Shown: positions 7,692 through 59,600 of the stretch, one piece after another
Numbering within the stretch: position 1 is the stretch's first letter
Layout: each line of letters opens with the position of its first letter
Origin: Malacoraja senta
Lineage: Eukaryota
Length of the DNA stretch: 64,000 bases
Direction: 5' to 3'
NCBI GenBank assembly: GCA_038087875.1
Contig: CM075994.1
Span: forward strand, 10,356,001-10,420,000
Made by a program: the position numbers and the translations under genes
Notes under the pieces: generated by a model
Database searches by the model: none
What the model was told of the DNA's origin: nothing
Seen by the model: only the letters and a program-made list of their open reading frames with translations

Positions 7692-7766
7692 ACGGTCACG
7701 TGACCACGACCATATTCAGCAGCTCCACGTCAGTGAAAATATTTTGAACCAGGAAGCGGATTTAAA

Positions 7767-8176: not shown

Positions 8177-8266
8177 GTAAAAGCAAACCGATATTGATCA
8201 CATCATTGTGTTATGTTTTGTTTATTTTCTGACATTTTTCTTGTCTGATCTGAAACCCAACTCCAG

Positions 8267-24080: not shown

Positions 24081-24959
24081 TCCCATTGGCTTGTTGAAAG
24101 CGTGAAAACACCCACCTCCAGATTCAGGGACTGTTTCTTCCCAGCTGTCATCAGGCAACGGAATCATCCTACCACAATCAGAGATCATTGCTGGACTACT
24201 ATCTACCCCATTGGTAGAACTGCATCACACAACAGTCTGTCTGTCTTTTCGTCTGTTTTGTTATTTTAAGTGTATGGGTTAATCTTCTCTGGTGTGTTTT
24301 ATGTGGGGGTGGGGGTGGGGGTCGGGGGAATTTTTTTTTCAATCTCTTACCTTGCCGGAGATGCGATTGTTTTCCGGGTCATATCTCCGGTCGCTCTGCG
24401 GCCTAACATCATGGAGCTGGCGGCCTTGATTATGATTATGATTATGACTATGATTATGATTATGATGCACTGTAATGGCTCGATTGTAATCATGCATTTT
24501 CTTTCCGCTGACTGGAGTGCACGCAACTAAAGCTTTTCACTGTACCAGATTTTAAAACCACGCTCTAAAGTCCATACAGTTTGGGGTTTGTTTCATTTAA
24601 ACACTGAAACCAAGGCAAGAAATTCAAATAAACAAAACTTTTCTATTAGGATCTTTTGCATTTTATAGGTCGTGCGAATTATCCAAATTCAACAAAGGGG
24701 GATTAAATGTATCTATTGCATTAATCTATTAATGTATCAATTCGTCATGTTTAGGGGGTCTTTGCCCTCAAAGAGGATCCCCTCATAGCTTCCACAAATG
24801 CTTCTTGATCAATTTAATTCTACCAGAAGTTCACATCTCGTTCCTGCATTGAGGGTTTCTCCACTATTCCACCTCATGCATGTGCCGTATCTGCAGACTC
24901 TTGTGTCCCAGTGAATTCTGGACATCAACAATGATGAACCAAGCATTATAAATTATTGT

Positions 24960-31643: not shown

Positions 31644-31719
31644 ACGGTCACATGACCGCCGATGTTCAGGAGCTCCACGTCAGTGAAAATACTTTGAACC
31701 AGGAATTGGTGGATTTAAA

Positions 31720-32127
31720 ATGGCTTCGAAAGACCCGGTCGAGAGTTTAACCGAGGAGGCAGTTTGTCCCATCTGCCTGGAATTCTTCACCGATCCGGTT
31801 ATACTGGAGTGTGGGCACAACTTCTGCCGCTCCTGTATCACACAGAGCTGGGACAGGCAGGCCAGAAACTCCTGCCCGGCATGTAGAAAGTATGTGGACC
31901 GCACCCTCAGGGTGAATCGGGCCTTGGTGAGACTGGCTGAGAAAGCTCGAGCACTGAGCCTGAATCTCAAAGAGAAGAAAAGTAAACTTCACTGCGAGAA
32001 ACATCAGGAAGAACTGAAGCTGTTTTGTGAAACGGACAAGAAACTGATCTGTGTGATTTGTGCAACTGGGCGGGAACACAAGTCTCACAGCTTCATGCCG
32101 GTAGATGAAGCAATTGAATTCTACAAG
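31720..32127 (+). CDS. TRIM-C exon 1: RING and B-box2 (408 nt, intact)
   Basis: [39 protein letters not shown]...CPAC...[32 protein letters not shown]. Donor AAG|GTAAAA. Confidence 0.95.
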
Positions 32128-32217
32128 GTAAAACCAAATGAACTTCGATCGCATCATTGTGTAATCTGTTCTTAATTGTCTGACATTTTTATTCTCTGAT
32201 CTGAAACCCAACCCCAG

Positions 32218-35100: not shown

Positions 35101-35611
35101 AATGTTATTGGTTGTAAAGACGCACAAATCTACCCTACTCTAAAGAAAGCAAGTAAACAGTGGCAGATTGCCTCTCCCGTCCAGTCCACTCTCGTTCAGT
35201 ATGATCACGTCAACTTCACCCCGCATCTCTACCTCCTCATTAACCACCTCTAATTACCTCTCCTCATCTGCCTCTCCCTCGCCATCTACTGGCAAGATAT
35301 TTAAATACCCGCCTTATTTCGCCATCCCCACCCGCAATATCTCGTTCATCCTCACTTTCCGCATTCGTTTTCCACGTCTGCACGCACCACCGACTCCCGT
35401 TCCCGATAACCCGCGGAATTCCCCCTCTCCTGCCCGGTTGAGGAAAGATGTCTGTTGACCATCCGATGTTGTTGGGGTGAAGGTGTCAGTTGTCCTCCCG
35501 CCTGTGCCTGAGGCCAAGCGGCTTCTCCCCCGGTCCCGGGACCGCGCTGCCCGAGTACCCCCCCCCCCCCCGACCCCCGGGGACTCTCTGATTCTCTGCT
35601 TCTCCCCCCAG

Positions 35612-36144
35612 TCTCCGTCACCCTGGATGTGGAAACAGCGCATCCAGAGCTCGAGGTGTCTGAGGATCGGAAGAGGGTGAGACGAACCGAGACCTGGAGG
35701 AATCCCCCTGACACCGGGAAGAGGTTTACATACTGGGAGTGTGTGCTGGGATCGGAGGGATTCACATCGGGGAGAAATTACTGGGAGGTGGAGGTGGCGG
35801 GGAGTCAGTGGTGGAGTCTGGGAGTCGCCGCAGAGTCTGTGGAGAGGAAAGGAGAGGACGACCTGACCCCGGAGACTGGAGTCTGGAGCATCGGGCGGCA
35901 GGATGACGTCTTTCATGCATTCACCTTCCCTCAATCCCCTCTCCCCGCCCATCCCATCCCCGGGAGGGTGGGAATTTATCTCAGTTACGAGTCCGGGACA
36001 GTTTCATTTTACGACGCGGACACCAAGTCCCATCTCCACACCTTCACTGGGAATAAATTCACGGACAAACTTTTTCCTTACTTCGAGACATGGGATGAAA
36101 ACCAGTGGCTGAGAATCTGCTCCGGTTCCGCTCCGGGTGTGTAA
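35612..36144 (+). CDS. TRIM-C exon 6: PRY-SPRY (B30.2) domain
   Basis: CCCCAG|TCTCCGTC; ORF 35629-36144 with YWEVEV and SFYD motifs; open to TAA. Confidence 0.95.
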
Positions 36145-36650
36145 CAGGGTCGGGTCCCGGGACCGGTGTCAGGAGCGGGGCTCAGGGGCTGTGGGGCAGA
36201 AACCCGGTGGACAACAGGTCGGCGCTGAAAGAACGGCTCCCATTTAATCCCCAAATTCCGCGTCGTGAAACCCCAGTGAGCGCGGAAATAAAACCAGGGG
36301 GAATGTAAATGTGGGAAGAGTGAAATAAACAGCAACTGAAATCAGAGCTGTCTGTCGATCCGTTCATTTTAACGCGTTAACCGCGTCCGGCAACGGAACA
36401 GAAATTACTTTTGTGAAAATATAAAGATTGAAACAATCGGCCTTCCCGCGGGTTCAGCAGCAGCCGCGGGCGGCGGGTCCTGAGCTCCGGGCTCCCCCGG
36501 GTCCTAAAGTCCGATAACTATTCTAATTAATATCGTGTTTGCAGCATTTGCTCTCCACACATCAGATTCGTTTTCTTCGGAACGGATCTTTGGAAGAATG
36601 GGTTCAAACTGAATTCCCGGTTCCGGGTGGGAACCCGTTGTGCTCAGGCT

Positions 36651-36970
36651 CTGGAAATGCTAAAGTTGCCTTCTCTTTGGAAATGCTAAAGTTGCCTTGG
36701 CTTTGGAAATGCTCAAGTTGCCTCGGGTTTGGAAAAAAGTTGCCTCGGGTTTGGAAATGCTAACGTTGCCTTTGGTCTGGAAATGCTAAAGTTGCCTGTG
36801 GTCTGGAAATGCTAAAGTTTCCTATTGTCTGGAAATGCTAAAGTTGCCTTTCGTCTGGAAATGCGAAAGTTGCCTTTGGTTTGGAAATACTAAAGTTGCC
36901 TTTGGTTCGGAAATGCTAAAGTTGCCTTGCCTAATTGAAATGTTGCTTTGCATAATTGAAAATTTGCCTT
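36651..36970. repeat. Minisatellite, ~26-bp unit (TGGAAATGCTAAAGTTGCCTTnGnT), about 12 copies
   Basis: Direct tandem repeats visible; degenerate toward the 3' side. Confidence 0.9.
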
Positions 36971-36973
36971 GCC

Positions 36974-38046
36974 GCTATATAATTAAAAGTCTAATCTTGA
37001 CCACTTCCTTTTTGATCTGTATATTGATTTTAGAAAAAAACGCTACCACGTACGGCTGTGAATTTTGGCCATCTTACTCAGAGTCCCCTCCGCTCATCAG
37101 GTGCCGAGGATTTTTCCCATCGATGAATAATAAGTTATTAGTGTTTTTAAAATGTTTAGATTCTCTCCTGTCAATCACGTCATGAAGGCCACGCCCCTTC
37201 TGGTGGGAGGGGGAGGGGCTATAGAACCCGGAAGTGTGGGCGTGGCTCAGTCTCTGCAAGATGGGAGAGGGAGAGGTCATACTCCCTGTCTTTAGTGGCC
37301 TTGCACCCTGCTTGAAATGGTATGAAACTGCAGTTGAATTTGGTGTCCTTGCAACCTGCTTGAAATGGTATGAAACCACTTGAATTTGGTGGCCTTGCAC
37401 CCTGCTTGAAATGGTAGGAAAATGCACTTGAATTTGGTGGCCTTGCACCCTGCTTGAAATGGTAGGAAACTGCACTTGAATTTGGTGGCCTTGCACCCTG
37501 CTTGAAATGGTATGAAACTGCACTTGAATTTGGTGGCCTTGCACCCTGCTTGAAGTGGTAGGAAACTGCACTTGAATTTGGTGGCCTTGCAACCTGCTTG
37601 AAGTGGCATGAAACTGGATTTGAATTTAGTGGCCTTGCACCTTGCTTGAAGAGGTATGAAACTGCACTTGAATTTGGTCGCCTTGCACCCTGCTTGAAAT
37701 GGTTGGAAACTACACTTGAATTTGGTGGCGTTGCACCCTGCTTGAAATGGAATTTCAAGGAATAGCCGTGAGTCAACTGCCAGCCCACCAGCCATGAGTG
37801 AGTGAGCTGCCTGCACAACAGGCTTGAGTGACTGAGCTGCCAGCCCAATAATCCATTCATCCCACAATGTCCATACTAGCCCCCTGGAAACCCGTCCCTT
37901 CAGCCCACAACACCCATACTTGCGCTCCAGAAAGCCTCCCCCACTGGCCACCAATATTGGAATTGGGGAGAGGTGGAATATTGCGTTTGGGGACCAGATG
38001 GAACTTGAAATTTGAAGCTGGAACCAACGGGTCCCACTTAGTCTAG
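36974..38046 (+). mobile_element. Non-autonomous Helitron with internal 48-bp minisatellite
   Basis: 5' (G)CTATATAATTAAAAGTC, 3' imperfect hairpin GGAACC-AAC-GGGTCC then CACTTAGTCTAG|T. Ends are homologous to 38102-39531. Confidence 0.8.
37295..37750. repeat. 48-bp minisatellite, ~9.5 copies, inside a Helitron
   Basis: Unit GTGGCCTTGCACCCTGCTTGAAATGGTATGAAACTGCACTTGAATTTG; explains the 16-aa periodic ORFs. Confidence 0.92.
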
Positions 38047-38101: not shown

Positions 38102-39531
38102 TCTATACTATTACTAAAAGTCTCATCTTGACCACTTCCTGTCTTCGTTGTAAATACATTTTAGAAAAAACGCTACCCTGTATAGCTATGATTTTTCCCC
38201 ATCTTACTCACCGTGCTCCTCTCCTCCAACCGCCCCAAGGTTTTTTCCGATCAGTGAAATAATAAAAAGGTTATGAATGTTCAAAAAATCGTGAAATTAG
38301 CAGATTGGTCCTCTCGCCTGTCAGTCACCATGATGAAGGTAACGCCCCTTCTGGGGGGCCAGGAGAATAAAGCCCCGGAGGCCGGACGTGAGTCAGTCAC
38401 CCCGGAAGACCGTGAGAGTTGAGTCCAGAACTGTGAGTCTACGCCGTGAGTGAACTGAACTGTGAGTCTGCACTCTACTTGAAATGAAATGAATTGGTGG
38501 CCTGCACTCTGGTTGAAATGAAATGAATTGGTGGCCTGCACTCCGCTTGAAATGATATGAATTGGTGGCCTGCACTCTGCTTGAAATGAAATGAATTGGC
38601 AGCTGTGAGTCAACTGCCAGCCCACCAGCCTTGTGTGAGTCAACTGCCAGCCCACCTTTGGCCTATCTGAAACCACTCATTTCGGCCCACAAAGCCCCTA
38701 TTAGCCCAGAAACCAGTCCCTTTTACTCAAAATGCCCGTATTAGCCAAGGAGGATCATTTTGGCCCAAAAGGCCCATGCCAGGCCCGGAAAAGTCCAGAA
38801 AAAGTGTCACTCAGATTTTTAACTTTCTTAAAGATTCCCACCGGCCCATCAGTAAGTATTCTCCCTGTGTATTAAACCTCACCCCCGTATTTTTCACCCT
38901 CCCTTCATTGGCTCCCTGTGAGATCCAGGCCAGGATAGACTTTCCTCATTCATTGCTGTGATCTGTAGAAACAGATGAAAAATGTCTAAAATTGATTCTC
39001 CACCCTCTCCCCCTTCTCTCTCACAGAGTCTCTCACCTGTTTTGGGTAGAATCTCTGGCAGTTTCTGAGCTACCAGCCCTGTGAGACTGATCTGCCAGCC
39101 CACCAGCCCTGAGAGACTGAGCTACCAGCCCACCAGGCCTGAGTGACTGGGCTGCCAGCCCAGAGTGACTGAGCTGCCAGCCCACCAGCCCTGAGTGACT
39201 GAGCTGCCAGCCCACCAGCCCTGAGTGACTGAGTTGCCAGCCCACCAGCCCTGAGTGACTGAGCTGCCAGCCCACCAGGCCTGAGTGACTGAGCTGCCAG
39301 CCCACCAGGCCTGAGTGACTGAGCTGCCAGCCCAAGAATCTATTCATCCCACAATGTCCATACAATCCCTCTGGAATCGTCCCTTCGGCCCACAACACCC
39401 ATACTAGCGCTCCAGAAATCCCCCCTCCCCCACTGGCCACCAATATTGGATTTGGTGGAGAGGTGGAATATTGTGTTGGGGGACCCATCTCCTGTGTGAA
39501 CATGGGACCCAACGGGTCCCACTTAGTCTAG
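38102..39531 (+). mobile_element. Non-autonomous Helitron with ~35-bp and 30-bp internal minisatellites
   Basis: A|TCTATACTATTACTAAAAG 5' end. Perfect hairpin GGGACCC-AAC-GGGTCCC followed by ACTTAGTCTAG|T. No TSD. Confidence 0.88.
39065..39332. repeat. 30-bp minisatellite (GAGCTGCCAGCCCACCAGCCCTGAGTGACT), about 9 copies
   Basis: Direct tandem repeats. Confidence 0.9.
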
Positions 39532-41655
39532 TATATATATATATTTCTCTAATTTCTTTCTTGTGATTTCCTCTAATTATTTGTTGACCTACCCTTTTCT
39601 TTCAATCTCTCTCTCTCTCTCTATGAAATCCTAATATTGTGAATAAAATATCCGTGAACACATGCCAAGATATTTTTTTCATTTGTTTCATTCTATATTA
39701 GTGTAATAAAATGTAGTGTATACATACCTACACTGATACAGAAGTGCCAGCTTAAGACACGAATAATGTATATTGCTACCATAGTTTAGTTTGAATTTAA
39801 CATATATCATGATCTTGATTTTTTGAAGTCCCATTAAATCATTTAAATGTTGTCTAAATTATACTTGAGGAAGTTTTAAAATTTAAATTGCATTTTTCCA
39901 TTTATTGTTTGATTCACATAATTCAATATATCTACATTATATGTTCTCAAACTTAAATGATAAGTAGATAAGAACTTATTCAGTGTTCATTTTCACAATT
40001 GGCCAATTTGTTTCTTAATGTGTGCAATGTCTAAACAAATTACCTGCCTCTTAATTACTTTTTAATACATGAATAAAAGTTAATGTGAATGCAAGCACCC
40101 AAGGACAGATCAGGGAAACTTCCCACATTTTCGATCCCAGAGTGCACGCGTTTTTCACTGCAATCCCATTCAAAAAAGTTTGCACAATGAATTAAATTAA
40201 TTGCATGGTCCAAACTTGTGATAAATTACTTCCTCAGGGATAACGCGGTAAGTACACGGAGCAAGGAAAGCTGTTGCTATGGTGCAAGCTGACTCAAATC
40301 ACTTAATCACGGCTGCAGACTAATGGGGCCCCCCTATTAATGTGCCTTAATATAATAACATTAATGTGTGGCGCTGGCATGACTAACGTGGCGCTGCGTA
40401 CTCTGTACACGCAGGCAAAGATACTAATCACGAAACCGGTTCCCAAGATGGCGCTAAAAATCACCCATCACATACGACTTTTTCGCCGAGTGGACCATCT
40501 TGCCGCGCTCTAAGATCTTTGCTCTGGGGTCTTCTAAAAAGAGATGCGAGGACATTGTGTAAATGTAAGCGGGCTGTTGGTGTACGCACTCGATCTTGGA
40601 GGGAATATTCCATTTCCAATGCGCAAACAGGATAGACGAAGTAGCCGATGGCTTCCGCGGGCTTGGAATGGATTTTGGTCACTCTCGTTTTCTCTGATAC
40701 CGAGAAAGAGACGGCGAGAAAGCGAAGGGCAGAGGAAAGGGGGAGCTGGTTGGAAACTGGCAATGAGTGAGATGAAGCGTTAAATGCTGATGCTCTATAA
40801 GACGCTGGTCTGGCAGCATTTCAAATATTGTGAGCAATTTGGGACACCATATCTGAGGAAGCATGGCCGTCCGAAGGGGGGGGGGGTGCGTTGGGTGCGC
40901 TGGCACCCCCCTTTTTTCCCCCACAATAAGAAAAAATCCCGAGGAAAAAAAAGTGGTTTTGCAGTCTGTCCCGAGGGTAGGACAGACTGCAAAACGACTC
41001 TCTTCTGTATCATCAGCAAACTTGCGAATCTTGCCCTGTGCTGTGACGTTTCACAGAGTGCAGGAGTAATTCAGCGGGTCAGGCTTAGTATAGAGGTTGG
41101 GAGGTCATGTTGCGGTTGCATAAGAAGCTGGTGAGGCCGCATTCAGAGTATTGTATTCAGTTCTGGGCACAATGTGAGAGGAAAGATGTCATCAAACTGG
41201 AAAGGTTACAGTGAAGATTAACGAGCATGTTGCCAGGACTAGAGGGCCAGAGCTATAGGGAGAGGTTGAGTAGGCTGGGACTCTATTTCATGGAGCACAG
41301 GAGGATGAGGGATGATCTAATAGAGGTGTATAAAATCATGATTTGAATAGATCTGGTTGAGTCTTTTACCCAGAGTAGGTGATTCGAGGAGCAGAGGACA
41401 TAAGTTTAAGGTGAAGGGGAAAAGATTTAATAGGAATCTGAGGGGTATATTTTTCACACAAAGGGTGGTAGGTGTCTGGAACAAGCTGCCAGAGGAGGTA
41501 GTTGAGGCTGGGACTATCGCAACATTTAAGAAACAGTTAGACAGGTACATGGATAGGGCAGGTTTGGAGGGATATGGATCAAACGTGGGCAGATGGGAGG
41601 GACTAGTGCAGATGGGACATGCTGGGCCAAAGGGCCTGTTTCCACACTGTATCCG

Positions 41656-42366
41656 TGAAAAAGTTACTTTTATAACTACTAAACCAGGTTCGCTTCTCAA
41701 TAAACAGACACCACACAAACTGTTTGGTAGACCAGTTCAAAACTTTACTTAACATCGGCCGATGGAAGGGAGCGAGAATTCCAGCTAAGTGACCAATGTA
41801 GACACTCGACTGTCCTCGGTCCCCTTCTCTGAACAACAGAATTACATCGCATTATATAGTGTTTCTTTGTCACATTAGCACATTCCACAGACATTAGTCA
41901 TGGTCAGAGGTACAGGAAAAGGCATCACATCAAAGGCCTTTTGTTTACATGGTACAAGATATACTGAAAACATTGGCCATTTGTCTTAGGTCATTTTATC
42001 TTAAAAGAGATCACCCTAGCTCTTTCGCTACTTCCTCTCTGTCACTTGGTCCCTCATAAACATAGGCCATTTGGTTTATGGCATCTTATCTTTCCACTTC
42101 CCTGGTTCCTCTCTCATCACCTCCTCCCCCATAAACATTGGCCATTTGTCTTATGGCATCTTACTTCAAAGATGTGACTAGCTGTTTCTTTCTCTGTCAC
42201 TTCCTCACTTGGGAGACAATGTTATGGTATTTATTATCTCAATACCCCAAAACCTGAGGCAACTTAACTTGCCTTTCTGTATTATTCTACTGGAGAAAAG
42301 CCTGATTTGAGACTAAATATAAGCTGTAAGCTTTTCTTATATTTTTAACATAATTCAGCTTTATCA
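41656..42366 (-). repeat. ERV 3' LTR (711 bp)
   Basis: Direct repeat of 46083-46793, preceded on the minus strand by the purine tract AAAAGGATGGAA (42367-42378). Minus-strand CCAAT-type repeats, TATATAA (~41852-41858) and AGTAAA (41744-41749). Confidence 0.95.
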
Positions 42367-43856
42367 TTCCATCCTTTTATCAAAATCTTGATAATAACTA
42401 CAGTCCTTGCCGAGTACATACAAAAGACCATAAGCATCTCATCAGGCAAATTATCTCACTGTCTGTAGTCAGGGTATCTTTGCTGCATTTGTCATGTTTG
42501 ACTCCAATCTTGTTTAAAAGGATGTGTGTACCATCCTTTAAATGTGGGTTAGTCCGCAAGTTTGCCATTCTGAAGAAAGTCCAGTCCATGTGGGCCACCC
42601 CAGAATAAAAGAGGGTCAATAGCTCCACAAACCGTTCACAGTCAATCAAATGTATCCAACGACGATGATCTTCAATCTTCACAGCAGTTTATGTTGTTGA
42701 TAGCACTTGGTTTTTCCTTTCAACACAATCTCAATTTCTTCTTGTCCCAGCACATGGTCATTTTGTAGCCTTTATGGACTCGTCCCTGTGCTCACAGCTC
42801 CTCTAACCTGGGAATGCAGATCTGGCAAGACCTGGGTTAATTGCTGTCCATACATAATTAGTTAATTGCCCAGGGCCTGTAGTTGGCTTCCCCCCACTCT
42901 CCAGGGGGTGGGCACAGCAGCCTTTCCTGTATCAATAAAAAAGTTGTAAATTCTGTTTCTCTAGCTGCAGTTGAATGACCCCTATCTACTCTGAAGAAGG
43001 GCTTCGGCCCAAAATGATGCCTATTTCCTTCGCTCCTTTGATGCTGCTTCATCCCCTGAGTTTCTCCAGCACTTTTGTCTACCTTTGATTTTCCAGCATC
43101 TGCAGTTCCTTCTTAAACACTTCTCTGTGAACTTATTCTTTAATCCGATTATATCTGAAGAGGCTCTCCCCACCTAAATATTAAATTCTCCAAATATGTT
43201 CTCTTCCCCAATTTACTTATCTTCTCACCTTTTATCCCTCATTAAAGGACAACCTCTGTTATCACATCAAAACAATCTTTCCCAAAAGAACTCACTCAGA
43301 ATCGGTAATCAATAATACATTTTCTTTTTCTCTGTAATTTTGACATTTCCAATCTCATTTAACACTTTAATTGGGATGAGTCTCTTTTTGAACTCGGCTC
43401 AAAAGATTTATAACAACCAACACATTTTATCATTTGAGTATAGCTCCACCCCCCATTCATGGCAGTGTCTTAAAGGAACACACCATAACCTGCCTGTTCA
43501 TTTGCATTTTAAAGGACAAACTGTTCTTAAAGGGACTCACACCTTTGCTCATTGCTTCAAATTTCACACATTCCACATAGAAAAAACATTGTTTTACAAG
43601 CAGTACATACACACAAAAAAATTGTTTTACCAGCAGTATATAATATTTCATCTTCAAAGACGTCTCTTTGTAATTTACTTTCCCTTTTTCTGACAAGACT
43701 TCTGTTTACCAGAATCCTGGTTACCTAACCCTAATTGGACTTTGATCCAGATCATGATTAGTCAGACTCCCCGTGACTTTTCAGTCTCCCTATCCTATCC
43801 TCATTTCTCCACCGAATTTGTCTTCATCCCCAATTTTTCTATAACATAGTTGCTTG

Positions 43857-44471
43857 TCAGAAAAAGGATTCCCCCGGGGTAATTTTGTTTTGCAATGCCC
43901 CATAGGCTCTTTCCACCATCCCAGATGCCTGTGGGTGATGTACACAGTGAAATTGCTGTCGGATATAAAAATGTGTACATATTTCCTTATTAATAGTGGC
44001 AATAAAATGGGGACCATTGTCCAAGCTTATGACAGTAGGTAGGCCAAACCTGGGAATAACTTCCCTTAACACCAATGTTACTGTAGTCTTAGCAGTATCA
44101 TTAGTGGTTGGTAGAGCTTCAATCCACCTGCTAAATAAATCTAAAATAACTAAGCAATATTTATAACACTGGGCCCTTGGCATTTCAATAAAATCAATCT
44201 GTATGCATTCAAACGGTCGTGATGGCATTGGTGTCACCCCTGAGGGTATCCTAATTGGTTTGCCTGGATTATTTCGTTGGCAAATTTTACATTCAGAGGC
44301 CTGCTTCAGTGCCTCTTGCCGGATTTTTAGGTGCCACCACGTTTCCTTTGTCATCCTTATCATTCCCTCCTTACCAGCATGGGTAAGTGAGTGAATATAT
44401 GTTAGTAAAACAGGTAAAAATGCATCAGATACACCAACTTGTCCAAGCGGGGTGAGCCGAATCAATGGCAC
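43857..44471 (-). pseudogene. Retroviral integrase (HHCC zinc finger and DDE core), truncated
   Basis: IHSLTHAG...CKICQRNN...QIDFIEMP...DLFSRWIEA...SLDNGPHF...HPQASGMVER. A separate C-terminal remnant (AVKIEDHRRWIHLIDC) lies at ~42640-42690. Confidence 0.9.
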
Positions 44472-45408
44472 AGCCCTCTTGTTTCCATAGTTGTTTTGGG
44501 TTATCAGAGGCGTCCCTCTGTAATGTACATACTTCCCTCATGTTTGGCAGGACCGTTCTATTTGCTAGCATCTGTTTACCTGCTGTCACTAAGCATTTGT
44601 ATGCATAGGCTGCTTGTTTGGCTACACTATCGGCAAATGCATTGCCTTTTGTTATAGGGTCCCCAGCACCAGTGTGTGCAGCACATTTAATAATGGTCAG
44701 CTGTTCTGGTATCATCAATGCCTTAAGCAAATAATGCACAGAAAGGCATTCCCGTGCTCCCAATCCTGGGGAGCTTTGTAAGGTCAGAACTTCAAGGTAT
44801 AGGGATATTACTGACGGAGCTGTCAGAGGTAAGTATGCCATCGCTACTGGTAGGACGTAGGGAGGTGGACATCTCCCAGGATTATCTAACTCCTCATCTT
44901 CACTACCAAACAGGGTCGTCGTGCCAGACATGAAGTCTCCTCCAGAGGATTTACCAGTACTGAGGTTATTTTTACTAACCATCACCTGTTGCTCACCTCC
45001 TGCCTGTCTCTTAATTATTTTCTCTTGTTCCTCCGCCCACTGGCATTCTAGTTGCAATACTTTCCATCCTTTCATAGTGCCATCCTTATTTCGTAACTCT
45101 ATCCCTTGTTTACATGCAGTATCCATCCAACTTCGATCTCTACTCTCCTCATGCTTCGTCTCTGCTTCTGCTTTCCACGTTTTAATTCCCTTCTTCCATT
45201 TCTTTCCTGCCTTCCTTTCCCATATCAACATTTCTGCTTTTTTAATTGTCTCGACATTCCATGTGCCCCCTACTGGCCAGGCTTCATCCCCCAACCGTTT
45301 GGTCAACTTGTAACTTAACATTCTAAATTTCTTATTATACTTAGGATTCAAATAACACATATGTTGGACGGGGGTTCCCCCCTCACTGTTATCCAAAGCA
45401 TTCCCCAT
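44425..45408 (-). CDS. ERV Gag N-terminus (MG start, PPPY late domain) fused in frame to the RNase H C-terminal segment, 327 aa
   Basis: MGNALDNS... (ATG at 45408)...GRCPPPYVLP...LLKALMIPEQLTIIKCAAHTGAGDPITKGNAFADSVAKQAA. Confidence 0.75.
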   Translation of the reverse strand: MGNALDNSEGGTPVQHMCYLNPKYNKKFRMLSYKLTKRLGDEAWPVGGTWNVETIKKAEMLIWERKAGKKWKKGIKTWKAEAETKHEESRDRSWMDTACKQGIELRNKDGTMKGWKVLQLECQWAEEQEKIIKRQAGGEQQVMVSKNNLSTGKSSGGDFMSGTTTLFGSEDEELDNPGRCPPPYVLPVAMAYLPLTAPSVISLYLEVLTLQSSPGLGARECLSVHYLLKALMIPEQLTIIKCAAHTGAGDPITKGNAFADSVAKQAAYAYKCLVTAGKQMLANRTVLPNMREVCTLQRDASDNPKQLWKQEGCAIDSAHPAWTSWCI

Positions 45409-46064
45409 AGCTAGATAGAGAAAAAGAGAGAGAGAGAAAAAAAAAATAAAAGAAAAAGAAAAAGAAAAAGAAAGCAGACCGCTTGATTCCGAAACGTGCA
45501 AAATATATCAACCAGGCCGACTCGCGACTCGAGACCCCAGTTTCTCAATTTGGCTGACTGTTTAACTTTGTAATATACAACGCCACTTATTTCTCAATCC
45601 GACAACTCCCCGGATGTTTCAATAAGCCAGACGCACACCTCACCTCCCGTATCTCAACCCGACAAAACACGGATGTCTCAACGAGGCCGATAAGCCCTTA
45701 GTAGAGAGAAAAGAAAAAAACAAAGAGAGATAGACAGAGAGAGAGAAAGAGAAACCACTCACGTCCTTCTTAACAAGATACACAAGCCCTTCTTAAAAAT
45801 ACAAGCACAAGTCTGTCTTAAAAATACATACACAATCCCCACTAAAAAAACCCTATAAAGCCCAACTGGTCTTACCTTAGTCTGTTGCTAAGAACCTCGG
45901 CAGGGAACCTGGATCAACCTCTGATGAAGGATCACAGACGTTCCCGGGAGTTTCTAGGGAGTCGGTCTTACAAGGGGGCCGATAGAGCTCAGTTATCTCC
46001 CTTCCAATCCCGGCAACCTCTGCAACCTCTTGCACAGTCAGCCGTTGATGTGGTCCCAGCGAGG

Positions 46065-46081
46065 CCTGCATAACTACGCCA
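46065..46081 (-). promoter_or_regulatory. ERV primer-binding site, tRNA-Ser-like
   Basis: Minus strand TGGCGTAGTTATGCAGG starts 1 nt after the 5' LTR. It resembles the complement of the tRNA-Ser 3' end (TGGCGTAGTCGGCAGG), imperfectly. Confidence 0.75.
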
Positions 46082-46082
46082 A

Positions 46083-46793
46083 TGAAAAAGTTACTTTTAT
46101 AACTACTAAACCAGGTTCGCTTCTCAATAAACAGACACCACACAAACTGTTTGGTAGACCAGTTCAAAACTTTACTTAACATCGGCCGATGGAAGGGAGC
46201 GAGAATTCCAGCTAAGTGACCAATGTAGACACTCGACTGTCCTCGGTCCCCTTCTCTGAACAACAGAATTACATCGCATTATATAGTGTTTCTTTGTCAC
46301 ATTAGCACATTCCACAGACATTAGTCATGGTCAGAGGTACAGGAAAAGGCATCACATCAAAGGCCTTTTGTTTACATGGTACAAGATATACTGAAAACAT
46401 TGGCCATTTGTCTTAGGTCATTTTATCTTAAAAGAGATCACCCTAGCTCTTTCGCTACTTCCTCTCTGTCACTTGGTCCCTCATAAACATAGGCCATTTG
46501 GTTTATGGCATCTTATCTTTCCACTTCCCTGGTTCCTCTCTCATCACCTCCTCCCCCATAAACATTGGCCATTTGTCTTATGGCATCTTACTTCAAAGAT
46601 GTGACTAGCTGTTTCTTTCTCTGTCACTTCCTCACTTGGGAGACAATGTTATGGTATTTATTATCTCAATACCCCAAAACCTGAGGCAACTTAACTTGCC
46701 TTTCTGTATTATTCTACTGGAGAAAAGCCTGATTTGAGACTAAATATAAGCTGTAAGCTTTTCTTATATTTTTAACATAATTCAGCTTTATCA
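46083..46793 (-). repeat. ERV 5' LTR (711 bp)
   Basis: No differences from 41656-42366 found by eye; followed on the minus strand by the PBS. Confidence 0.95.
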
Positions 46794-47726
46794 TCCGTCT
46801 ATGACTATCTATCTTTCCCTCTCAAACCCATTCTCCTGTCTTCTCCCCATTACCTCTGACAATCAAAAATCTATCAATCTCCTCCTGAAAAATGTCCACT
46901 GACTTGGCCTGCACTGCTGTCTGCGGCAATGAATTCCACAGTTCACCACCCTTTGACAAGAAATTCCTGCTCATCTCCTTCCTAAAGGAATGTTTTTTTT
47001 ATTCTGAGGCTGTGGCCACTGGTCCTAGACTCTCCCACTAGTGGAAACATCCACTCCACATCCACTCCATCCAGGCTTTTACCAGGGTAGGACAGAGTGC
47101 AACAGCGTCACACCATGTCACAAAGCTCATGTCCTGTCCTGCATCACCCAAGGCAGCAGAGACGTTATAGGAGAGGGCAAGCACCGTCACAAAGTAGCTC
47201 ACGATGGTTTTGGTAACATTCAGGAATGTCTATGCATGTCACATCATGTATATTACTGAAGAAGGGTCTTGACCCGAAATATAATCTATACCTTTTCTCC
47301 AGAGATGCTGCCTGGCCCACGGAGTTACTCCAGCACTCTGTGACATGTCACCCAACCATGTTCTCCACAGATGCTGCCTGACCCACTGAGTTACTCCATT
47401 CTGTGACATGTCACCTATCCATGTTCTCCACAGATACTGCCTGACCCACTGAGTTACTCCAGCACTCTGTGTCTATTTTCCCTTCACCCATCTGCCCAAG
47501 CCCACCCTCCCCCCTCCTTTCCTATGTTCCTTTCCACCCATAAACCTCTCTCTGCCTTTACATTTCACTCCTCTTTGAAATCTGCTCTACTTATCTACAT
47601 GCATTTTTCTTCTTAACGTTTTAGTCATAGAATGATGCAGTGTGGAAACAGGCCCTTCAACCCAACTTGCCCACACCGACCAACATGTCCCATCCACACT
47701 AGTCCCACTCACACACGTTTGGCCCA

Positions 47727-50125: not shown

Positions 50126-50664
50126 TTACACACCCAGAGCGGAACCGGAGCTGATTCTCATCCACTGGACATCGTCCGAAGGCTCAAAGAATGGATAAAG
50201 TTTCTCCGTGAATTTATTCCCAGTGAAAGTGTAGAGATGGGACTTGGTGCCCGCGTCGTAAAAAGAAACTGTCCCGGACTCGTAACTGAGATAAACTCCC
50301 ACCTTCATGGGGACGGGACGGGCGGGAAGACGGGATGGAGGGGAGGTGAATGCATGAAACGCGCCATCCCACCGCCTGATGCTCCAGACTCCAGTCTCCG
50401 GGGTCAGTGTGACCGTACTATTCCTCTCCACAGACTCTGCGGCGACTCCCAGACTCCAGCCCCGACTCTCCACCACCTCCACCTCCCAGTAATGTCTCCC
50501 CGACGTGAATCCCTCGGATCCCAGCACACACGTACTGTATGTAAACCTCTTCCCGGTGTTAGGGAGACTCCTCCGGAACAAGATCCGGGCACATCTAACC
50601 CTCTTCCGATCCCGAGACACCTCGAGGAGTGGACCGGCCGTTTCCACATCCATGGTGACGGAAA
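50126..50664 (-). CDS. TRIM-D exon 6: PRY-SPRY (B30.2) domain
   Basis: CACCAG|TTTCCGTC acceptor. SVTMDVETAGPLLEVSRDRKRV...YWEVEV...SFYD...KLYPFF, with a 2-aa insertion in the first variable loop. Confidence 0.93.
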
Positions 50665-53600
50665 CTGGTGGGAGAATGAATGAATGAATAATTTTGTTGG
50701 GCAAGTATTCACATACCAGGAATTTGCCTTGGTGCTCCGCCCGCAAGTGACAACATGACATACAGTGACAGTTAAGAATGATTCGTAAAACATTAAACAT
50801 TAATAATAAAACATTATAGTTTAAACATGTGAATTAAATAATATACCAGAGTAAAAGGAGCTACAGATTTTTGGTTATTGAATAGAGCAACTTCTCGTGG
50901 AAAAAAGCTGTTTTTATGTCTGGCTGTGGCAGCTTTCACAGTCCAGAGTCGCCTTCCAAAATGAAGTGATTCAAAGAAGCAGAGAATCAGAGAGTCCCCA
51001 GGGATCGGTGGGAAACTCGGGCAGCGTGGCCCTGGGACCCGGGGGGGGGGGAAGAAGCCATTCGGCCTCAGGCACAGGCACAGGCGGGCAGACAACTGAA
51101 ACCTTGCCCCAACAACAGCGGGTGGACAACAGACATCTTTCCCGGGGTTACTCAACCGGGCAGGAGAGGGGGAATTCCGCGGGTTATCGGGTACGGGAGG
51201 GGGCGAGGCGTGCGGACAGGGAAAACGAATGCGGAAAGTGAGGATGAACGAGATATTGCGGGTGGAGATGGAGAAATAAGGCGTGTATTTAAATATCTTG
51301 CCAGTAGATGGCGAGGGAGAGGCAGATTGGAAGATGAGGAGACGGATGTGAGTGGTAATTAGAGGTGGTTAAAGAGGATGTAGAGATGCCGGGTGGAGTT
51401 GCCGTGATCATACTGAACGGGAGTGGACTGGACGCACGAGGCCATCTGCTACTGTTTACTTGCTTTCTTTTTTCCTTCTTTTTTTTAATTTAATTTTATT
51501 TTATTAGAAGTAAGTACAGTCATATGGCACCATGGTGCCTAATATATATTGACATAATACATTTTATGTACAGCTTCTTATTTTTTTTTAAAATAATGAA
51601 AAAGAAAAAGAGAGAATAGATAATGAAAGATAGAAAAACGTGTGATATATAGTGTGTGAGGGAAAAAAGGGTGAAAGAAGAAACATCAAGAAAAGAAGAT
51701 AGAAAGAAAAAGAGTAGAAAGTAAAAGATTAAGGAGATCGTTATTTATATTCTTGACCATCCCTCACCCAGTCCAGGAACAGTAAGCTTCTACGATTCTG
51801 TTGCACCATATGTTTCCAAAAAGTCGACAAATGGAGACCAACTCGTTAAGAATTGGTCTGATTTATCTATTTGGAGGAATCGCATTTCCTCAAGATGTGC
51901 GGTGTCCAACATGTTTGAAATCCACATTTTAAGCGTTGGTGTGGGTGTATTTTTCCAAAATTTAAGCATACGTTTTTTTGCCGTTATTAACCCATAATTA
52001 AAAAATAAATTTTGAGATGAGTTCAATTTATTCCCATCTTCCATTACTCCAAATATAATCTTGCTTTCTTTACGGGAGGGTGGAATTGGTGCGTCTGTAC
52101 AACCAAGAACATTCTGATCGCATTGTGAAGCAATATATGAACTTCACTGAGGGGCTTGACAATGTTTTGCATGTAAGGCTGGTCCAGAAAGCGAAGGCAG
52201 GTGGGATCCAAGACGGGTTGGTAAAATGGGCCCACAATTGGCTTGGTGGTTGGAGGTAGAAGATAGCGCTAGAAGGATGATTTTGCTGCCTGGAGGTCTG
52301 TGACTGGTGGTGTGCAGCAGAGATCGGTGCTGCAACCTTTGCTGTTTATTTTATGTTTTCATGGCTTGGATGTGAATGTAGGAGGTGTGACTACAAAGTT
52401 TGTGGAGAACGGATAATGTTGTGGATACCAAGGCAGTCTGTCAAAGTCTGCAGCAGGATATAGGCTGGATCATCAAAACCTTATTGTCAGGCAGGGATAT
52501 CAATACTGGAGACGCAGTTTTCTTCACACAAAGAGTTGTTAATACCTGGAATATTTTGCCAGAGGAGGTGGTGGAATCAGATGTAATCACTACATCTAAG
52601 AGGCATTGCGATTTAGCAAATGAGGTGTAGAATAATACGGTTCTAATGTGGGCAAATGGGTTTTGTGTGGCTGGGAAAAAAGGTGGACATAGACGCGATG
52701 GGCTGAAGGGCCTGACTCTGTAATGTACAACCATAGCTCTCTGGCTCCAAGAGCGCTGAATGACTGATTATCCACAGCCGCCAGTGCAGGGATTTCCAAA
52801 GGTTGCCCAGTCTCTGCGTGCAGTAATGTCTCCTTGTCTCTGTCCTAAATGGTCCAGCTCACATTCTGAGAGGGTTTCCGCTGACTCCAGATCCCTCAGA
52901 CAGGGGAAGCATCCTCCCTGCATCCAGCCCACTGAGTCCTGTAAGGACTTTGCAGGGCTCTCGCTTAACTTTTTTCCCCTGCTGCCAGCCGGGCAACCTA
53001 GGCAGCTTTTTAGGTTGCCAAATGACAGTTTAGGTGGTCATTTAAGACGGCTTGCATGACGCGTGCGATAATGTGCTCGGACGAAGTGCGTAGTTCCCAG
53101 TCGGAATTATACTCAATGAAGCATTCACATATTATTTCTGCTTCAAATAAAGTCACAAACTAAACATATTCACCAATCAAGACATGATATATCACACAAT
53201 GACATGCAGCAAAATTATAAGACAGTATCTCAACTCTTTTTACACAGAGGCCCGAGAGCCGTTGGAGCGGTCGCAGAGGGAGGAGCTAGGGCAGTTTACT
53301 GTTCTGGATGTCAGATGTATTGTATCCAGGGTAAGGGGGGAGTATGAGGGCCAGGGCAGTTTACTGTTCTGGATGTCAGATGTATTGTATCCAGGGTAAG
53401 GGGAGTATGAGGGCCAGGGCAGTTTACTGTTCTGGATGTCAGATGTATTGTATCCAGGGTAAGGGGGGAGTATGAGGGCCAGGGCAGTTTACTGTTCTGG
53501 ATGTCAGATGTATTGTATCCAGGGTAAGGGGAGTATGAGGGCCAGGGCAGTTTACTGTTCTGGATGTCAGTTGTATTGTATCCAGCGTAAGGGGAGTATG

Positions 53601-56600
53601 AGGACCAGGGCAGTTTCCTGTTCTGGATGTCAGATGTGGGAAGTCATGGAGTCTGATAGCCCTCCAGACGTCCACATCTGCGCCAGGTGTATCGAGATGG
53701 GGCTCCTAATGGACCGTATTAGGAACCTGGAGCAGCAGCTCGATGACCTCCGTCTGGTCAGGGAGAGCGAGGAAGTCATTGAGAGGAGTTACAGGGAGGT
53801 GGTCACTCCAAGACCACAGGAGGCAGGCAAGTGGATCACGGTTGGGAGAGGCAAGGGGCACAGGCAGGGACTAGAGAGTACCCCAGTGGCTGTACACCTT
53901 GACAATAAGTACTCCTGTTTGAGCACAGTTGGGGTGGACAGCCTACCTGGGGGTAGCGACAGCGGCCGGGCCTCCGGTATAGAGACCGGTCCTGTTGCTC
54001 AGAAGGGTAAGGAAAAGAAGAGGAGGGCAATACTAATAGAGGACTCTATAGTTCGGGGGTCAGACAGGCGATTCTGTGGATGCAGTCGGGAGACCCGGAT
54101 GGTAGTTTGCCTCCCTGGTGCCAGGGTCTGTGATGTGTCTCAACGTGTCCAAGATATCCTAAAACGGCAGGGAGAGGAGCCTGAGGTCGTGGTACATATA
54201 GGTACCAATGACATAGGTAAAAAAAGAGAAGAGGTCCTGAAAGGAGAATTTAGGGAGTTAGGAGTTAAAGAGAAGGACAGCAAAGGTAACAATCTCGGGA
54301 TTACTGCCTGTGCCACGCGACAGTGTGAGTAGGAATGGAGCGAGGTGGAGGATAAATGCGAGGCTGAAGGACTGGTGCAGAAGGCAGCGATTCAAATTTC
54401 TGGATCATTGGGACCTCTTTTGTGGAAGGTTCGACCTGTACAAAAAGGATGGGTTGCACTTGAACCTGAGGGGGACCGATATCCTGGCGGGGAGATCTGC
54501 AAAGGCTACTCGGGAGACTTTAAACTAGAATGGTTGGGGGGAGGGACTCAAATAGAGAATGCTATTAGACAGTGTGTGAGGCAGGAGGCAGAGAAGGAAA
54601 GCACTCAGACGCAACATGTAGGGGGGAAAGAAGAAAACAATAATAAACACAGAATAAGAGGTGGTGGGGTTCTTAAATGGGTGAGCAGAGAAACAGAGGG
54701 GTGTAAAATGCGGGCGGAAGCAATAGGTAGCAAGGTGAAAAGTAAAAGTGGCAGGCAGACAAATTCAGGGCAAAAATCAAAAAGGGCCACTTTTCAACAT
54801 AATTGTATAAGGGGTAAGAGCGTTGTAAAAACAAGCCTGAAGGCTTTGTGTCTCAATGCAAGGAGCATTCGTAATAAGGTGGATGAGTTGAACGTGCAGA
54901 TAGCAATTAATGATTATGATATAGTTGGGATCACGGAGACATGGCTCCAGGTTGACCAAGGCTGGGAGCTGAACATCCAGGGATATTCAATATTCAGGAG
55001 GGATAGAGAGAAAGGAAAAGGAGGTGGGGTAGCGTTGCTGGTTAGAGAGGACATTAACGCAGTGGAAAGGAAGGACATTAGCTTGGAGGATGTGGAATCG
55101 GTATGGGTAGAGCTGCGAAACACTAAGGGGCAGAAAACGCTGGTGGGTGTTGTGTACAGGCCACCTAGCAGTAGTAGTGAAGTTGGGGATGGCATCAAAC
55201 AGGAAATTAGAAATGCGTGCAACAAAGGCAAAACAGTTATAATGGGTGACTTTAATCTACATATAGATTGGGTGAATCAAATTGGCAGGGGTGCTGAGGA
55301 AGAGGATTTCTTGGAATGTATGCGGGATAGTGATCTAAACCAACATGTAGAGGAACCAATGAGAGAGCAGGCTATTCTAGACTGGGTATTGAGTAATGAG
55401 GAAGGGTTAGTTAGCAGTCTTGTTGTGCGTGCCCCCTTGGGCAAGAGTGACCATAATATAGTTGAGTTCTTCATTAGGATGGAGAGTGACATTGTTAATT
55501 CAGAACCAACGGTTCTGAAATTAAAGAAAGGTAACTTTGAGGGTATGAGATGTGAATTGGCCAAGATTGACTGGCAATTAGTTCTAAAAGGGTTGACGGT
55601 GGATATGCAATGGAAGGCATTTAAAGACTGCATGGATGAACTACAAAAATTGTTCATCCCAGTTTGGCAAAAGAATAAATCAGGGAAGGTAGTGCATCCG
55701 TGGATAACAAGGGAAATCAGGGATAGTATCAAAGCAAAAGATGATGCGTACAAATTAGCCAGAAAAAGCAGCATACCAGAGGACTGGGAGCAATTCAGAG
55801 ACCAGCAGAGGACGACACAGGGCTTAATTAGGAAAGGGAAAATAGATTATGAAAGGAAACTGGCAGGGAACATAAAAACTGACTGCAAAAGTTTTTATAG
55901 AAATGTGAAGAGAAAGAGATTAGTTAAAACAAATGTAGGTCCCTTGCAGTCAGAAACAGGTGAATTGATCATGGGGAACAAGGATATGGCGGACCAATTG
56001 AATAACTAAATTTGGTTCCGTCTTCACTAAGGAAGACATAAATAATCTGCCGGAAATAGCAGGGGGCCGTGGGTCAAAGGAGATGGAGGAACTGAGTGAA
56101 ATCCAGGTTAGTCAGGAAGTGGTGTTGGGTAAATTGAATGGATTAAAGGCCGATAAATCACCAGGGCCAGATAGGCTGCATCCCAGAGTACTTAAGGAAG
56201 TAGCTCCAGAAATATTGGCTGCATTAGTGATAATTTTTCAAAACTCTTTAGATTCTGGAGTAGTTCCTGAGGATTGGAGGGTAGCAAACGTAACCCCACT
56301 TTTTAAGAAGGGAGGGAGAGAGAAAACGGGGAATTACAGACCAGTTAGTCTAACATCGGTAGTGGGGAAACTGCTAGAGTCACTTATTAAAGATGGGATA
56401 GCAGCACATTTGGAAAGTGGTGAAATCATTGGACAAAGTCAGCATGGATTTACGAAAGGTAAATCATGTCTGACGAATCTTATAGAATTTTTCGAGGATG
56501 TAACTAGTAGAGTGGATAGGGGAGAACCAGTGGATGTGTTGTATCTGGACTTTCAGAAGGCTTTCGACAAGGTACCACATAAGAGATTAGTATACAAACT

Positions 56601-59600
56601 TAAAGCACACGGTATTGGGGGTTCAGTATTGATGTGGATAGAGAACTGGCTGGCAAACAGGAAGCAAAGAGTAGGAGTAAACGGGTCCTTTTCACAATGG
56701 CAGGCAGTGACTAGTGGGGTACCGCAAGGCTCAGTGCTGGGACCCCAGCTATTTACAATTTATATTAATGAGCTGGATGAGGGAATTGAAGGCAACATCT
56801 CCAAGTTTGCGGATGACACTAAGCTGGGTGGCAGTGTTAGCTGTGAGGAGGATGCTAGGAGACTGCAAGGTGACTTGGATACGCTGGGTGAGTGGGCAAA
56901 TGTTTGGCAGATGCAGTATAATGTGGATAAATGTGAGGTTATCCACTTTGGTGGCAAAAACAGGAAAGCAGACTATTATCTAAATGGTGGCCGATTAGGA
57001 AATGGGGAGATGCAGCGAGAGCTGGGTGTCCTGGTACACCAGTCATTGAAAGTAGGCATGCAGGTGCGGCAGGCAGTGAAGAAAGCGAATGGTATGTTAG
57101 CTTTCATAGCAAAAGGATTTGAGTATAGGAGCAGGGAGGTTCTACTGCAGTTGTACAGGGTCTTGGTGAGACCACACCTGGAGTATTGCGTACAGTTTTG
57201 GTCTCCAAATCTGAGGAAGGACATTATAGCCATAGAGGGAGTGCAGAGAAGGTTCACCAGACTGATTCCTGGGATGTCAGGACTTTCATATGAAGAAAGA
57301 CTGGATAGACTCGGCTTGTACTCGCTAGAATTTAGGAGATTGAGAGGGGATCTTATAGAAACGTACAAAATTCTTATGGGGTTGGACAGGCTAGATGCAG
57401 GAAGATTGTTCCTGATGTTGGGGAAGTCCAGGACAAGGGGTCACAGCTTAAGGATAAGGGGGAAATCCTTTAAGACCGAGATGAGGAAAAACTTTTTCAC
57501 ACAGAGTGGTGAATCTCTGGAACTCACTGCCACAGAAGGTAGTTGAGGCCAGTTCATTGGCTATATTTAAGAGGGAGTTAGATGTGGCCCTTGGGGCTAA
57601 GGGGATCAGGGGGTATGGAGAGAAGGCAGGTACGGGATACTGAGTTGGATGATCAGCCATGATCATATTGAATGTCGGTGCAGGCTCGAAGGGCCGAATG
57701 GCCTACTCCTGCACCTATTTTCTATGTATCTATGTATGTATTAGTTCTTTCCACTTCCAAACAACAATGTGGTTGGATTATTCAGCGTATGATCAACCTG
57801 TGTCAATAAATCCTGGACCATGGTAACATATATGCGTACGTATAGTTGTGAATGTTGCTCATTAAATAACTACAGTACTGATACTCCATATTAAGAGCAT
57901 TGATTTGCCGTTAAAATGAATTCTGTAATAACGTGTCAACGGCAGCAGTGACAAGCGAACACTGCGGTTTTAATGTTTCACGTGTTCACAATTTAATTAA
58001 TCCATCTTAATGGATTAAAACAAATAATAACATTGGGAATTAAAACACATTTGATTGCATTCCGTTATCAAACATACTCAAAGTTCGCTCTGAAGACATT
58101 TCCAGCACAATAGGGGCAGGGAGGGGTGTGTGTGTGAATCAGTGCGGGGTGGATAGATGGCCGGGGGGGGGGGGTGGGTTAGAAGGCAGTCGGTGCAGAA
58201 TGGATGGATTGAGGCAGGTGAATTAGTACGTGTTGGTTGGTAAAATTGTGAGGGGAGAGCACCGGGGATGTCAGTGGTGTTGAATGGGGGTTCAGTATGG
58301 GATGGATGGGGATAGACAAAAGTGCTGTAGAAACTCAGCGGGTGAGGCAGCATTTATGGAGCGAAGGAAATAGGCAACGTTTCGGGTCGAGACCCTTCTT
58401 CAGACTGTTCCCCCCATTCTTCTTGAATGGGAGGATCAGTACAGGATGGATGGGGGGGGGGGGGAGATCAGTGCGGGATGGAGTGGAGGGGTCCCAGGAT
58501 AAGGGGGTGGAGGGGACGTACAAGAGAGAGAGAGAGAGAGAGGGAGAGGGGGGGCGAGGTGGGGAGGAAGGAAGATCAGCGCTCCTCGGACAACAAACCC
58601 TCCCGCACGCCGAGGCCTCCCCCTCCCCCTCCCTCCTCCCAGCCTCGGCGTGCGGGAGGGTTTGTTTCGAAAGCGGTTATCGCCGTTACCGGAGTGGCAA
58701 GCAGCGGCCCTTATCAGGGCGGGCGGGGGCCGGGAGGAGGAGGATATGGAGCCGCTGTCGCGGCCGCTGTGCGAAGCCCGTCATTCACTCTGACTCCACT
58801 GAAGCAGCTGCACCAAAGATCTTATAGCTATAGGATCTCTGAGCTGCACCGCTCGGCCCCGCACCTTGCTGTTGGCTGTTTCAGGGCGGGCGGGGTGTAG
58901 GAGGAGGAGATGGAGCCGCTGTCGCGACCACTGCTGCCGCTGTGCGAAGCCCGTCATTCGCTCCGACCCTTCCTCACCCCGCACCTAGTATCTTTGCCCC
59001 GCACAGCCGCTGCCGACACGAAACGTCGCGTTCCTTTTCTCCAGAGATGCTGCCTGACCCGCGGAGTTACTCCAGTTTATTGTGTCTATCTTCGGTACAA
59101 ACCAGTATCTGGTTGCCAAGCCGGGCAAAATGACTCGGTGTTTAGGTTGCCCGGCGGCGCTTTGAGTGGTCAGTGGCACCCGGGCAACCTCTAATTTCGA
59201 GCCCTGCTTTGTGTTTCACTGAGATCTCCTCTAATACGCCTGAACCCTCGAGTACACAGGCCTAGTCTACGCAATTTCACCCAGCACAGCAAACCCATTC
59301 TCCCAGGAGCAAGGATTCGTTCAAGTGCAAACAAACTTCGCTCTTTGTCTCTGTGATACTTCCCCCAGAATCCATTAATACCATTCATCTTCACAAATAA
59401 GTGTTGCATAAAGATGTCTTAAAAAAGAACAATGGGAAAGGTTTTAGTTTTACCTCGTTTGATGAGATCAGATGTTTCTCTCAATGCCATGTTGTAGAAA
59501 AAGGTGCGATCATAGTTTTCAGTGGGCAACGGGCCATATACCACCGACATTGATTTGGTTTCATCTCTAACCCTGCAAATATTTAACAGCTGGTTAGAAA

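Follow-up and report, generated by a model that had tools for sequence, protein, structure and literature searches.

The window analysed here, a stretch of 64,000 nucleotides from Malacoraja senta (assembly GCA_038087875.1, contig CM075994.1, positions 10,356,001 to 10,420,000 of the forward strand), contains at 41656-46793, on the minus strand, an internally deleted provirus of an endogenous retrovirus (ERV). An earlier note on this DNA, made by eye, had described it as a very young insertion of a defective element. The structure of the provirus and the copies that share its main deletion point to a family that was already defective when this copy was inserted.

Structure of the provirus

The element is bounded by two long terminal repeats (LTRs) of 711 bp each, the 5' LTR at 46083-46793 and the 3' LTR at 41656-42366, both on the minus strand and both with TG...CA ends. 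Their alignment contains no mismatch (0/711), and the same four bases are found at 46794-46797, on the 5' side of the provirus, and at 41652-41655, on its 3' side, forming a target-site duplication (TSD; a 4-bp match is expected by chance with a probability of 0.004). Hence both the identity of the LTRs and the intact TSD, noticed earlier by eye, were confirmed. The window has 66 repeat pairs of at least 200 bp, of which no other reaches 100% identity, the runner-up being at 96.8%. The target site is the tail of a decayed long interspersed nuclear element (LINE), which, judging by its translated reverse transcriptase (RT) end, we take to be CR1-like.

In the 5' LTR we observed a TATA-like box (46285) and a candidate variant poly(A) signal (46176), their roles being putative, and the U3 part of each LTR (41968-42202 and 46395-46629) carries imperfect direct repeats of 65-80 bp with 78-82% identity, which possibly are enhancer repeats. 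A stretch resembling a primer-binding site (PBS) occupies 46065-46081 on the minus strand, beginning one base past the 5' LTR. Its first nine bases fit what we take to be the 3' end of vertebrate tRNA-Ser, after which the pairing breaks; there is no tRNA gene inside the 64-kb window with which it could be compared. At the other end, the polypurine tract (PPT) reported earlier was found adjoining the 3' LTR, as a tract of 12 bases with one pyrimidine inside (42367-42378, minus strand).

The 5' LTR is followed by a leader of 674 bp (45409-46082, minus strand) with two upstream ATGs and low-complexity runs, where the packaging signal is presumed to lie. Next comes an open reading frame (ORF) of 327 codons (45408-44428), absent from the earlier note, in which the N-terminal part of gag and the end of RNase H are joined in one frame. 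The gag part (codons 1-211; 44776-45408, minus strand), delimited by protein alignments, has a Met-Gly start, a matrix-like region and a PPPY motif. It is 58% identical to the Rhinoraja protein P0003, 36-38% identical to shark-like gag N-ends and, over 53 residues, 83% identical to P0006, which extends into the capsid and a zinc knuckle. In the ESM Atlas, residues 1-210 of this part reached a best score of 0.82, which we take as no more than a lead. The deletion junction itself, about 28 bases at 44747-44775 on the minus strand, was placed by the alignments on either side of it. Approximately 3.1 kb has been lost there, comprising the capsid, nucleocapsid, protease, RT and most of RNase H; this size was estimated by alignment to the Leucoraja Gag-Pol protein P0136, which leaves a gap of about 1045 codons. 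Past the junction, the end of RNase H and the start of the integrase region (44428-44746, minus strand; Pfam and protein alignment) continue in the gag frame. The RNase H remnant matches positions 102-140 of the 141 positions of Pfam RNase_H with E = 0.003, under the cut-off, and is 64% identical to the Leucoraja protein P0004.

A frameshift near 44440-44455 separates the fused ORF from the integrase frame, in which the zinc finger and the core (43860-44450, minus strand) are recognised by Pfam (rve, E = 5e-18; Integrase_H2C2, E = 1e-6), the gene being truncated past the core. The HHCC and D,D,E residues can be discerned by eye in the translation. Inserted DNA, about 0.9 kb in all, splits the integrase gene; in it we distinguish a 738-bp insert with 35% GC (43122-43859) and part of an interspersed repeat of the host (42979-43121, 143 bp, plus strand; 86-91% identity to its best copies in the window). 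For the 738-bp insert no protein match was obtained (tblastn, E < 1e-3) and no match elsewhere in the window; neither by eye nor by tblastn, whose queries contained no env proteins, did the insert reveal another integrase or remains of env. Behind the inserted DNA lies the frameshifted C-terminal part of integrase (42617-42978, minus strand) with a C-terminal domain of the murine leukaemia virus (MLV) type. Here tblastn with P0003, P0024, P0027 and P0036 supports 42709-42617, and the upstream extension was judged by eye. Thus, the integrase is indeed split and frameshifted, as had been noticed, on the evidence of Pfam, translation and tblastn.

When 132 retrieved proteins, including full-length pol relatives and a gag bearing the capsid and nucleocapsid, were used as tblastn queries, no piece of the capsid, protease or RT was found in the interior, which agrees with the earlier description. 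These queries had been gathered through the fused ORF and the integrase, so that no search was aimed at env itself; however, only about 250 bp separate the end of integrase from the PPT, leaving no room there for env, and so its reported absence is upheld. Judging by its sequence, the element is unable to encode the capsid, protease, RT or a whole integrase. Rfam yielded a single match on the element, far under its cut-off.

Copies sharing the deletion and other relatives

The Logan protein P0002 is 79% identical to the fused ORF over 108 residues, and its residues over the junction are those of the element. A search for further junction proteins gave two matches among 52 candidates, P0002 alone spanning the junction; in viral contigs and in metagenome contigs no related loci were found (protein search, junction pattern). 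Contigs of four of the 24 listed runs (X1, X2, X3 and X8) were aligned to 42367-47250, and the contig results given here rest on the 32 pieces listed, beyond which there are 222,218 more. On the one flank included in this alignment, the depth is dominated by a host repeat. The junction is bridged, with at least 31 letters on each side, by two of these 32 pieces, X3 record 20 from organism B (88.7% identity) and X8 record 30 from organism D (89.0%). X1 record 4 also crosses it, with a gag side too short to be counted. Thus, the junction is common to other copies, and the claim that the element was defective before it inserted holds. The earlier note had made its proposal depend on the existence of other copies with the internal deletion, and such copies were found.

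In X1, from organism A, three contigs are 98.0-99.6% identical to the element at a depth of 346-423, and four diverged contigs have a depth of 6.7-14.6, the ratio being 24-63. Although depth is not a copy number, organism A probably has tens of copies of near-identical family members. At 44733 the depth in X1 is 405 and at 44735 it is 803; hence a contig of depth about 400 starts there, running at least 31 letters across 44746, and the high-depth subfamily of organism A would also cross the junction. The median depths of gag, the pol remnant, the insert and the 3' part lie within about three-fold of one another in each of the four runs, and thus the abundant form is the damaged one. The joint between the PPT and the LTR is likewise present in contigs, with a depth of 364 in X1 and 3750 in X2. 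Taken together, P0002, the two bridging records and the high-depth contigs bear out the proposal of a multi-copy non-autonomous family sharing the deletion; the structure, the shared junction and, at high depth, near-identical relatives were observed, and lesions are common to many copies in three organisms.

Other lesions of the interior are distributed unevenly among the copies. Near 43870-43900, indels account for most of the depth in B (and in D, at 43871-43873) and for zero depth in A, and hence the A copies share the state of the window there. The 738-bp insert is covered in organisms A, B and D, its right edge being spanned by X8 record 28. The edge of the host repeat piece is covered by one X2 contig with a depth of 1994, as compared with 58 in B and 22 in D, and the match of X8 record 25 and X1 record 1 ends at 42981; this piece seems to mark the main subfamily of organism A. 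There are also skips of 94 bases in the leader (depth 107 in X1) and of 108 bases in the integrase core (depth 2503 in X8), for both of which the letters between the two sides are not known. Such nesting of lesions is what one expects if one defective master after another was copied. The insert also contains a short tandem duplication near 43580-43650, and its depth is at the level of the interior in all four runs.

Several relatives lack the junction and, by their sequence, are candidates for undeleted copies. In X1 records 5 and 6 (86-87% identity; depth 84 and 7) the RNase H match extends to 44746 and is followed by 300-400 unlike letters, in X8 record 31 (94%; depth 906) the gag match runs down to 44772 and then the sequence differs, and P0006, which continues into the capsid, belongs to the same category.

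The nearest named relatives come from Leucoraja, Amblyraja and Rhinoraja, which by itself would point to a skate-like cartilaginous host. As the element has no RT, its class was judged by the RT of its relatives and by the integrase C-terminal domain. P0094, 45% identical over the integrase, scores 458 bits against the MLV-type RT p80, 185 against the foamy one and about 69 against that of human immunodeficiency virus 1 (HIV-1); P0004 likewise has its best matches in the MLV-type RT group. The C-terminal piece of integrase aligns to the part of P0003 that is Pfam MLVIN_C. For the integrase core alone, foamy structures come first in PDB, with no gamma or epsilon core among the matches listed. 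In an integrase tree of 21 rows without labelled epsilon references, the element groups with the Leucoraja elements and two further rows (support 98/96), apart from the teleost and caecilian elements; a word-index hunt for longer integrase relatives yielded none among 361 candidates. Thus, the MLV-type RT of the relatives, MLVIN_C and the 4-bp TSD support the assignment, also made earlier, of the element to class I (gamma/epsilon-related) ERVs.

Among these relatives, P0003 (Rhinoraja longicauda, XP_078286998.1), annotated as uncharacterised, is another deleted ERV form, where the gag N-part is in frame with the end of the integrase core and an MLVIN_C domain. In the gene models P0129 (Amblyraja) and P0136 (Leucoraja), C2H2 zinc fingers are attached to RNase H or Gag-Pol of an ERV; these models are either annotation chimeras or ERV-zinc-finger fusion transcripts.

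Origin and age of the insertion

The explanation that we favour, with a probability of about 0.8, is that a non-autonomous class I ERV family, defective beforehand and copied in trans in skate-like fish, recently inserted here. In an ancestral provirus, about 3 kb would have been lost from gag to RNase H, env would have been lost as well and integrase interrupted, the LTRs, PBS, leader and PPT being retained. The defective RNA, transcribed from the 5' LTR, could then be packaged by the Gag-Pol of a related complete ERV, whose proteins would reverse-transcribe and integrate it with a 4-bp TSD. Rounds of mobilisation may have been repeated across several host species, and the later lesions (the host repeat piece and further deletions) would mark successive master copies. 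Since env is missing, copying was probably intracellular, and since the element has no capsid, protease, RT or whole integrase, it would have been mobilised in trans; the identity of the helper and the age of the insertion are likewise inferred. As reverse transcription resets the LTRs, an old scarred interior can stand between identical ones.

Several observations weigh against this explanation. The poor pairing of the PBS past nine bases (with the presumed tRNA) and the pyrimidine in the PPT could hinder copying. Contig depth does not give the number of copies, and the ratio of 24-63 is relative to diverged contigs; the crossing of the junction in organism A follows from depth arithmetic, with no bridging record among those listed. 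None of the 32 listed contigs spans the element, and a second complete copy with its TSD was not seen among them. A coding-competent helper was not found; the closest intact Gag-Pol, that of Leucoraja with 45% identity in integrase, is probably of a different family. Thus, of the recently or currently active helper proposed earlier, what we observe is candidate relatives without the junction.

The age of the copy can be bounded from its LTRs. For 0/711 differences the 95% upper bound is 9.6 million years (My) at 2.2e-10 per site per year, the rate assumed in PMC4422223; with a rate of 7e-10 per generation (PMC10587355), it is 3 million generations. The term "very young" was therefore an overstatement, as identical LTRs allow up to about 10 My at shark rates; even so, among chondrichthyan ERVs this is a young copy. 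Forty of 220 rows were listed; at 15 of these, every one in the interior, X1 and X2 disagree with the window in nearly all of their depth. Were these 15 differences to have arisen after the insertion, 5.7 differences would be expected in the LTRs, and the probability of observing none would be 0.003. This suggests that the interior differences mostly predate the insertion, or else that the LTRs were converted; the count of 15 private differences may itself be too high, since rare variants are dropped and A may be another species, which again tells against our explanation. CpG decay as their origin was considered and set aside, as it fits three of the 15 and is not dominant.

The main rival as to the age of this copy is that the same non-autonomous family inserted earlier and gene conversion later equalised the LTRs. 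In its favour, the interior differs by about 1.3% from its closest contig sequence in organism A (word share 0.67), the PBS and PPT look imperfect, and of four orthologous bat proviruses at least two are reported to have undergone conversion between the 5' and 3' LTRs (PMC4643047), a precedent that counts against a recent insertion. However, conversion would have had to extend over the whole 711 bases, with the TSD perfect too, the differences resembling CpG decay are only three, and a diverged parent copy or a subfamily of a sister species accounts for the distance of the interior. We consider such conversion improbable, and were it to have happened, the result at the level of the family would stand. 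Still less probable is that the identity was produced by assembly or polishing: the pair is the only one of the 66 to reach 100%, as such an artefact might leave it, but repeat pairs at 95-97% stay separate within the same window, one TSD fits both LTR ends exactly and there is no N in the window.

If, instead, the copies bearing the junction were to be explained by host DNA having been duplicated, segmentally or in tandem, one could point to the TRIM cluster around the provirus, which holds duplicated blocks at 82-90% identity. Against this, the paralogous TRIM blocks of the window contain no other copy of the LTR or the interior, and duplication would not reset the identity of the LTRs. Moreover, the depth of the LTR is 3-6 times that of the interior in all four runs, as expected for dispersed proviruses together with solo LTRs. 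We hence give duplication hardly any weight.

The provirus is situated between the 3' ends of two convergent genes. The left TRIM gene has a RING/B-box exon at 31717-32172 (plus strand) and its last PRY-SPRY exon at 35611-36144 (plus strand), and the right, TRIM-like gene has a PRY-SPRY exon at 50126-50676 (minus strand), with no RING exon within the 64-kb window. The element is thus intergenic, with the stop codons 5.5 kb and 3.3 kb away on the left and on the right, respectively. Of the earlier statement that it lies between two putative antiviral TRIM genes, the position was corroborated (the PRY-SPRY exons end at 36144 and 50126), and "antiviral" is a label of that note only. One may ask if the insertion affects the regulation of these genes, given its place amid two convergent TRIM-like 3' ends and the promoter-like motifs of its LTRs. 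Yet it is several kilobases past both stop codons, the left gene has its own AATAAA signals at most 200 bases from the stop, and the provirus landed in the tail of a LINE in a repeat-rich region, where a family of many copies would strike clusters by chance. Nothing linking the insertion to the flanking genes was found in the window analysis, and we regard such an effect as most unlikely.

The TRIM cluster as a whole comprises two RING/B-box exons with a fragment and three PRY-SPRY exons (887-970, 7764-8215, 18988-19518, 31717-32172, 35611-36141 and 50129-50665). In the RING exon at 7764-8215 there is a frameshift near 7862, and this paralogue may be a pseudogene. From the left TRIM gene to the provirus there are tandem arrays with units of 26, 48 and 30 bp (36610-37800 and 39083-39376). 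A long LINE at 53463-57737, presumably CR1-like, has large open stretches, and its partial copy at 23259-24081, on the opposite strand, is 96.8% identical to it; it is a fairly young family.

Comparison with known retroviral systems

The non-autonomous lifestyle is already known for ERVs of rodents and zebrafish and is hardly described in sharks and rays. In the literature covered, which included few subscription papers, we found no description of a non-autonomous ERV in skates, and the family may be catalogued in Repbase or Dfam. In zebrafish, where non-autonomous ERVs occur, 248 of 890 ERV-like elements have identical LTRs (PMC8672886). In cartilaginous fish, the CmiERV lineages II and III of the elephant shark, epsilon-related retroviruses with which the element can be compared by description only, have LTRs diverged by 2.4-3.3%, are dated to 54-75 My and are defined by env (PMC4422223), unlike the element. 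Thus, the latter adds evidence of recent retroviral mobilisation in a group where the described ERVs are older than 50 My (PMC4422223). The invading ERVs of Wang and Han 2023 (ERVi; PMC10435555) share identical LTRs with the element, while they are also required to have intact genes, which it lacks, and insertion polymorphism. Their screen of 2,004 genomes required an RT match, and hence would miss the element; cartilaginous fish are not represented among the 37 orders for which ERVi are listed, which the authors ascribe to limited data, and no invading ERV of this group was reported (PMC10435555). Young insertions of the kind described here are missed by RT-based screens.

The closest parallel to the fused ORF is the mouse IAP 1-delta-1, which, like the element, is non-autonomous and env-less, with one large deletion and an in-frame gag-pol fusion (PMC6466679); its fusion protein was reported to aid retrotransposition in cis (PMC6466679). 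The 327-codon ORF is a fusion of the same kind, with the same junction frame in P0002. IAP 1-delta-1, however, belongs to class II and has a deletion of 1.9 kb, whereas the element belongs to class I, has lost about 3.1 kb, including all of the capsid and RT, and its fused ORF ends before the integrase core. By analogy, a cis role of the gag-RNase H fusion is weakly suggested, and P0002, which goes out of frame about 55 codons past the junction, disfavours strict conservation of the fusion. A bolder possibility, which we think doubtful, is that a class I lineage is still mobilising defective copies in the germ line of skates and that the fusion, selected for capture of helper particles, converged with IAP 1-delta-1 and was kept through several speciations. 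If so, the in-frame gag-integrase fusion of the Rhinoraja protein P0003 would repeat the same solution, although this second fusion may reflect a bias of annotation towards open frames. The junction, the nested lesions and the LTR provide markers for finding the helper and dating the bursts, and also allow for a test for selection on an in-frame gag-pol fusion outside mammals.

In its general mode of life the element resembles the mouse pairs ETn/MusD and VL30/MLV, where abundant elements have kept the LTRs and cis signals and use the proteins of a related ERV (PMC6466679), and the abundant non-autonomous ERVK of the deer mouse (bioRxiv 10.1101/2022.10.18.512801). The rodent systems differ in having identified helpers, the element in keeping clear gag and pol remnants and in its host, a cartilaginous fish. 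As regards the shared breakpoint, the best counterpart is the class I FcERV-gamma6 of the cat, where a common deletion breakpoint is present in 29 of 43 copies and was read as amplification of a deleted progenitor (PMC4643047). In that case the shared deletion takes env, whereas in the element the genes needed for copying are gone too.

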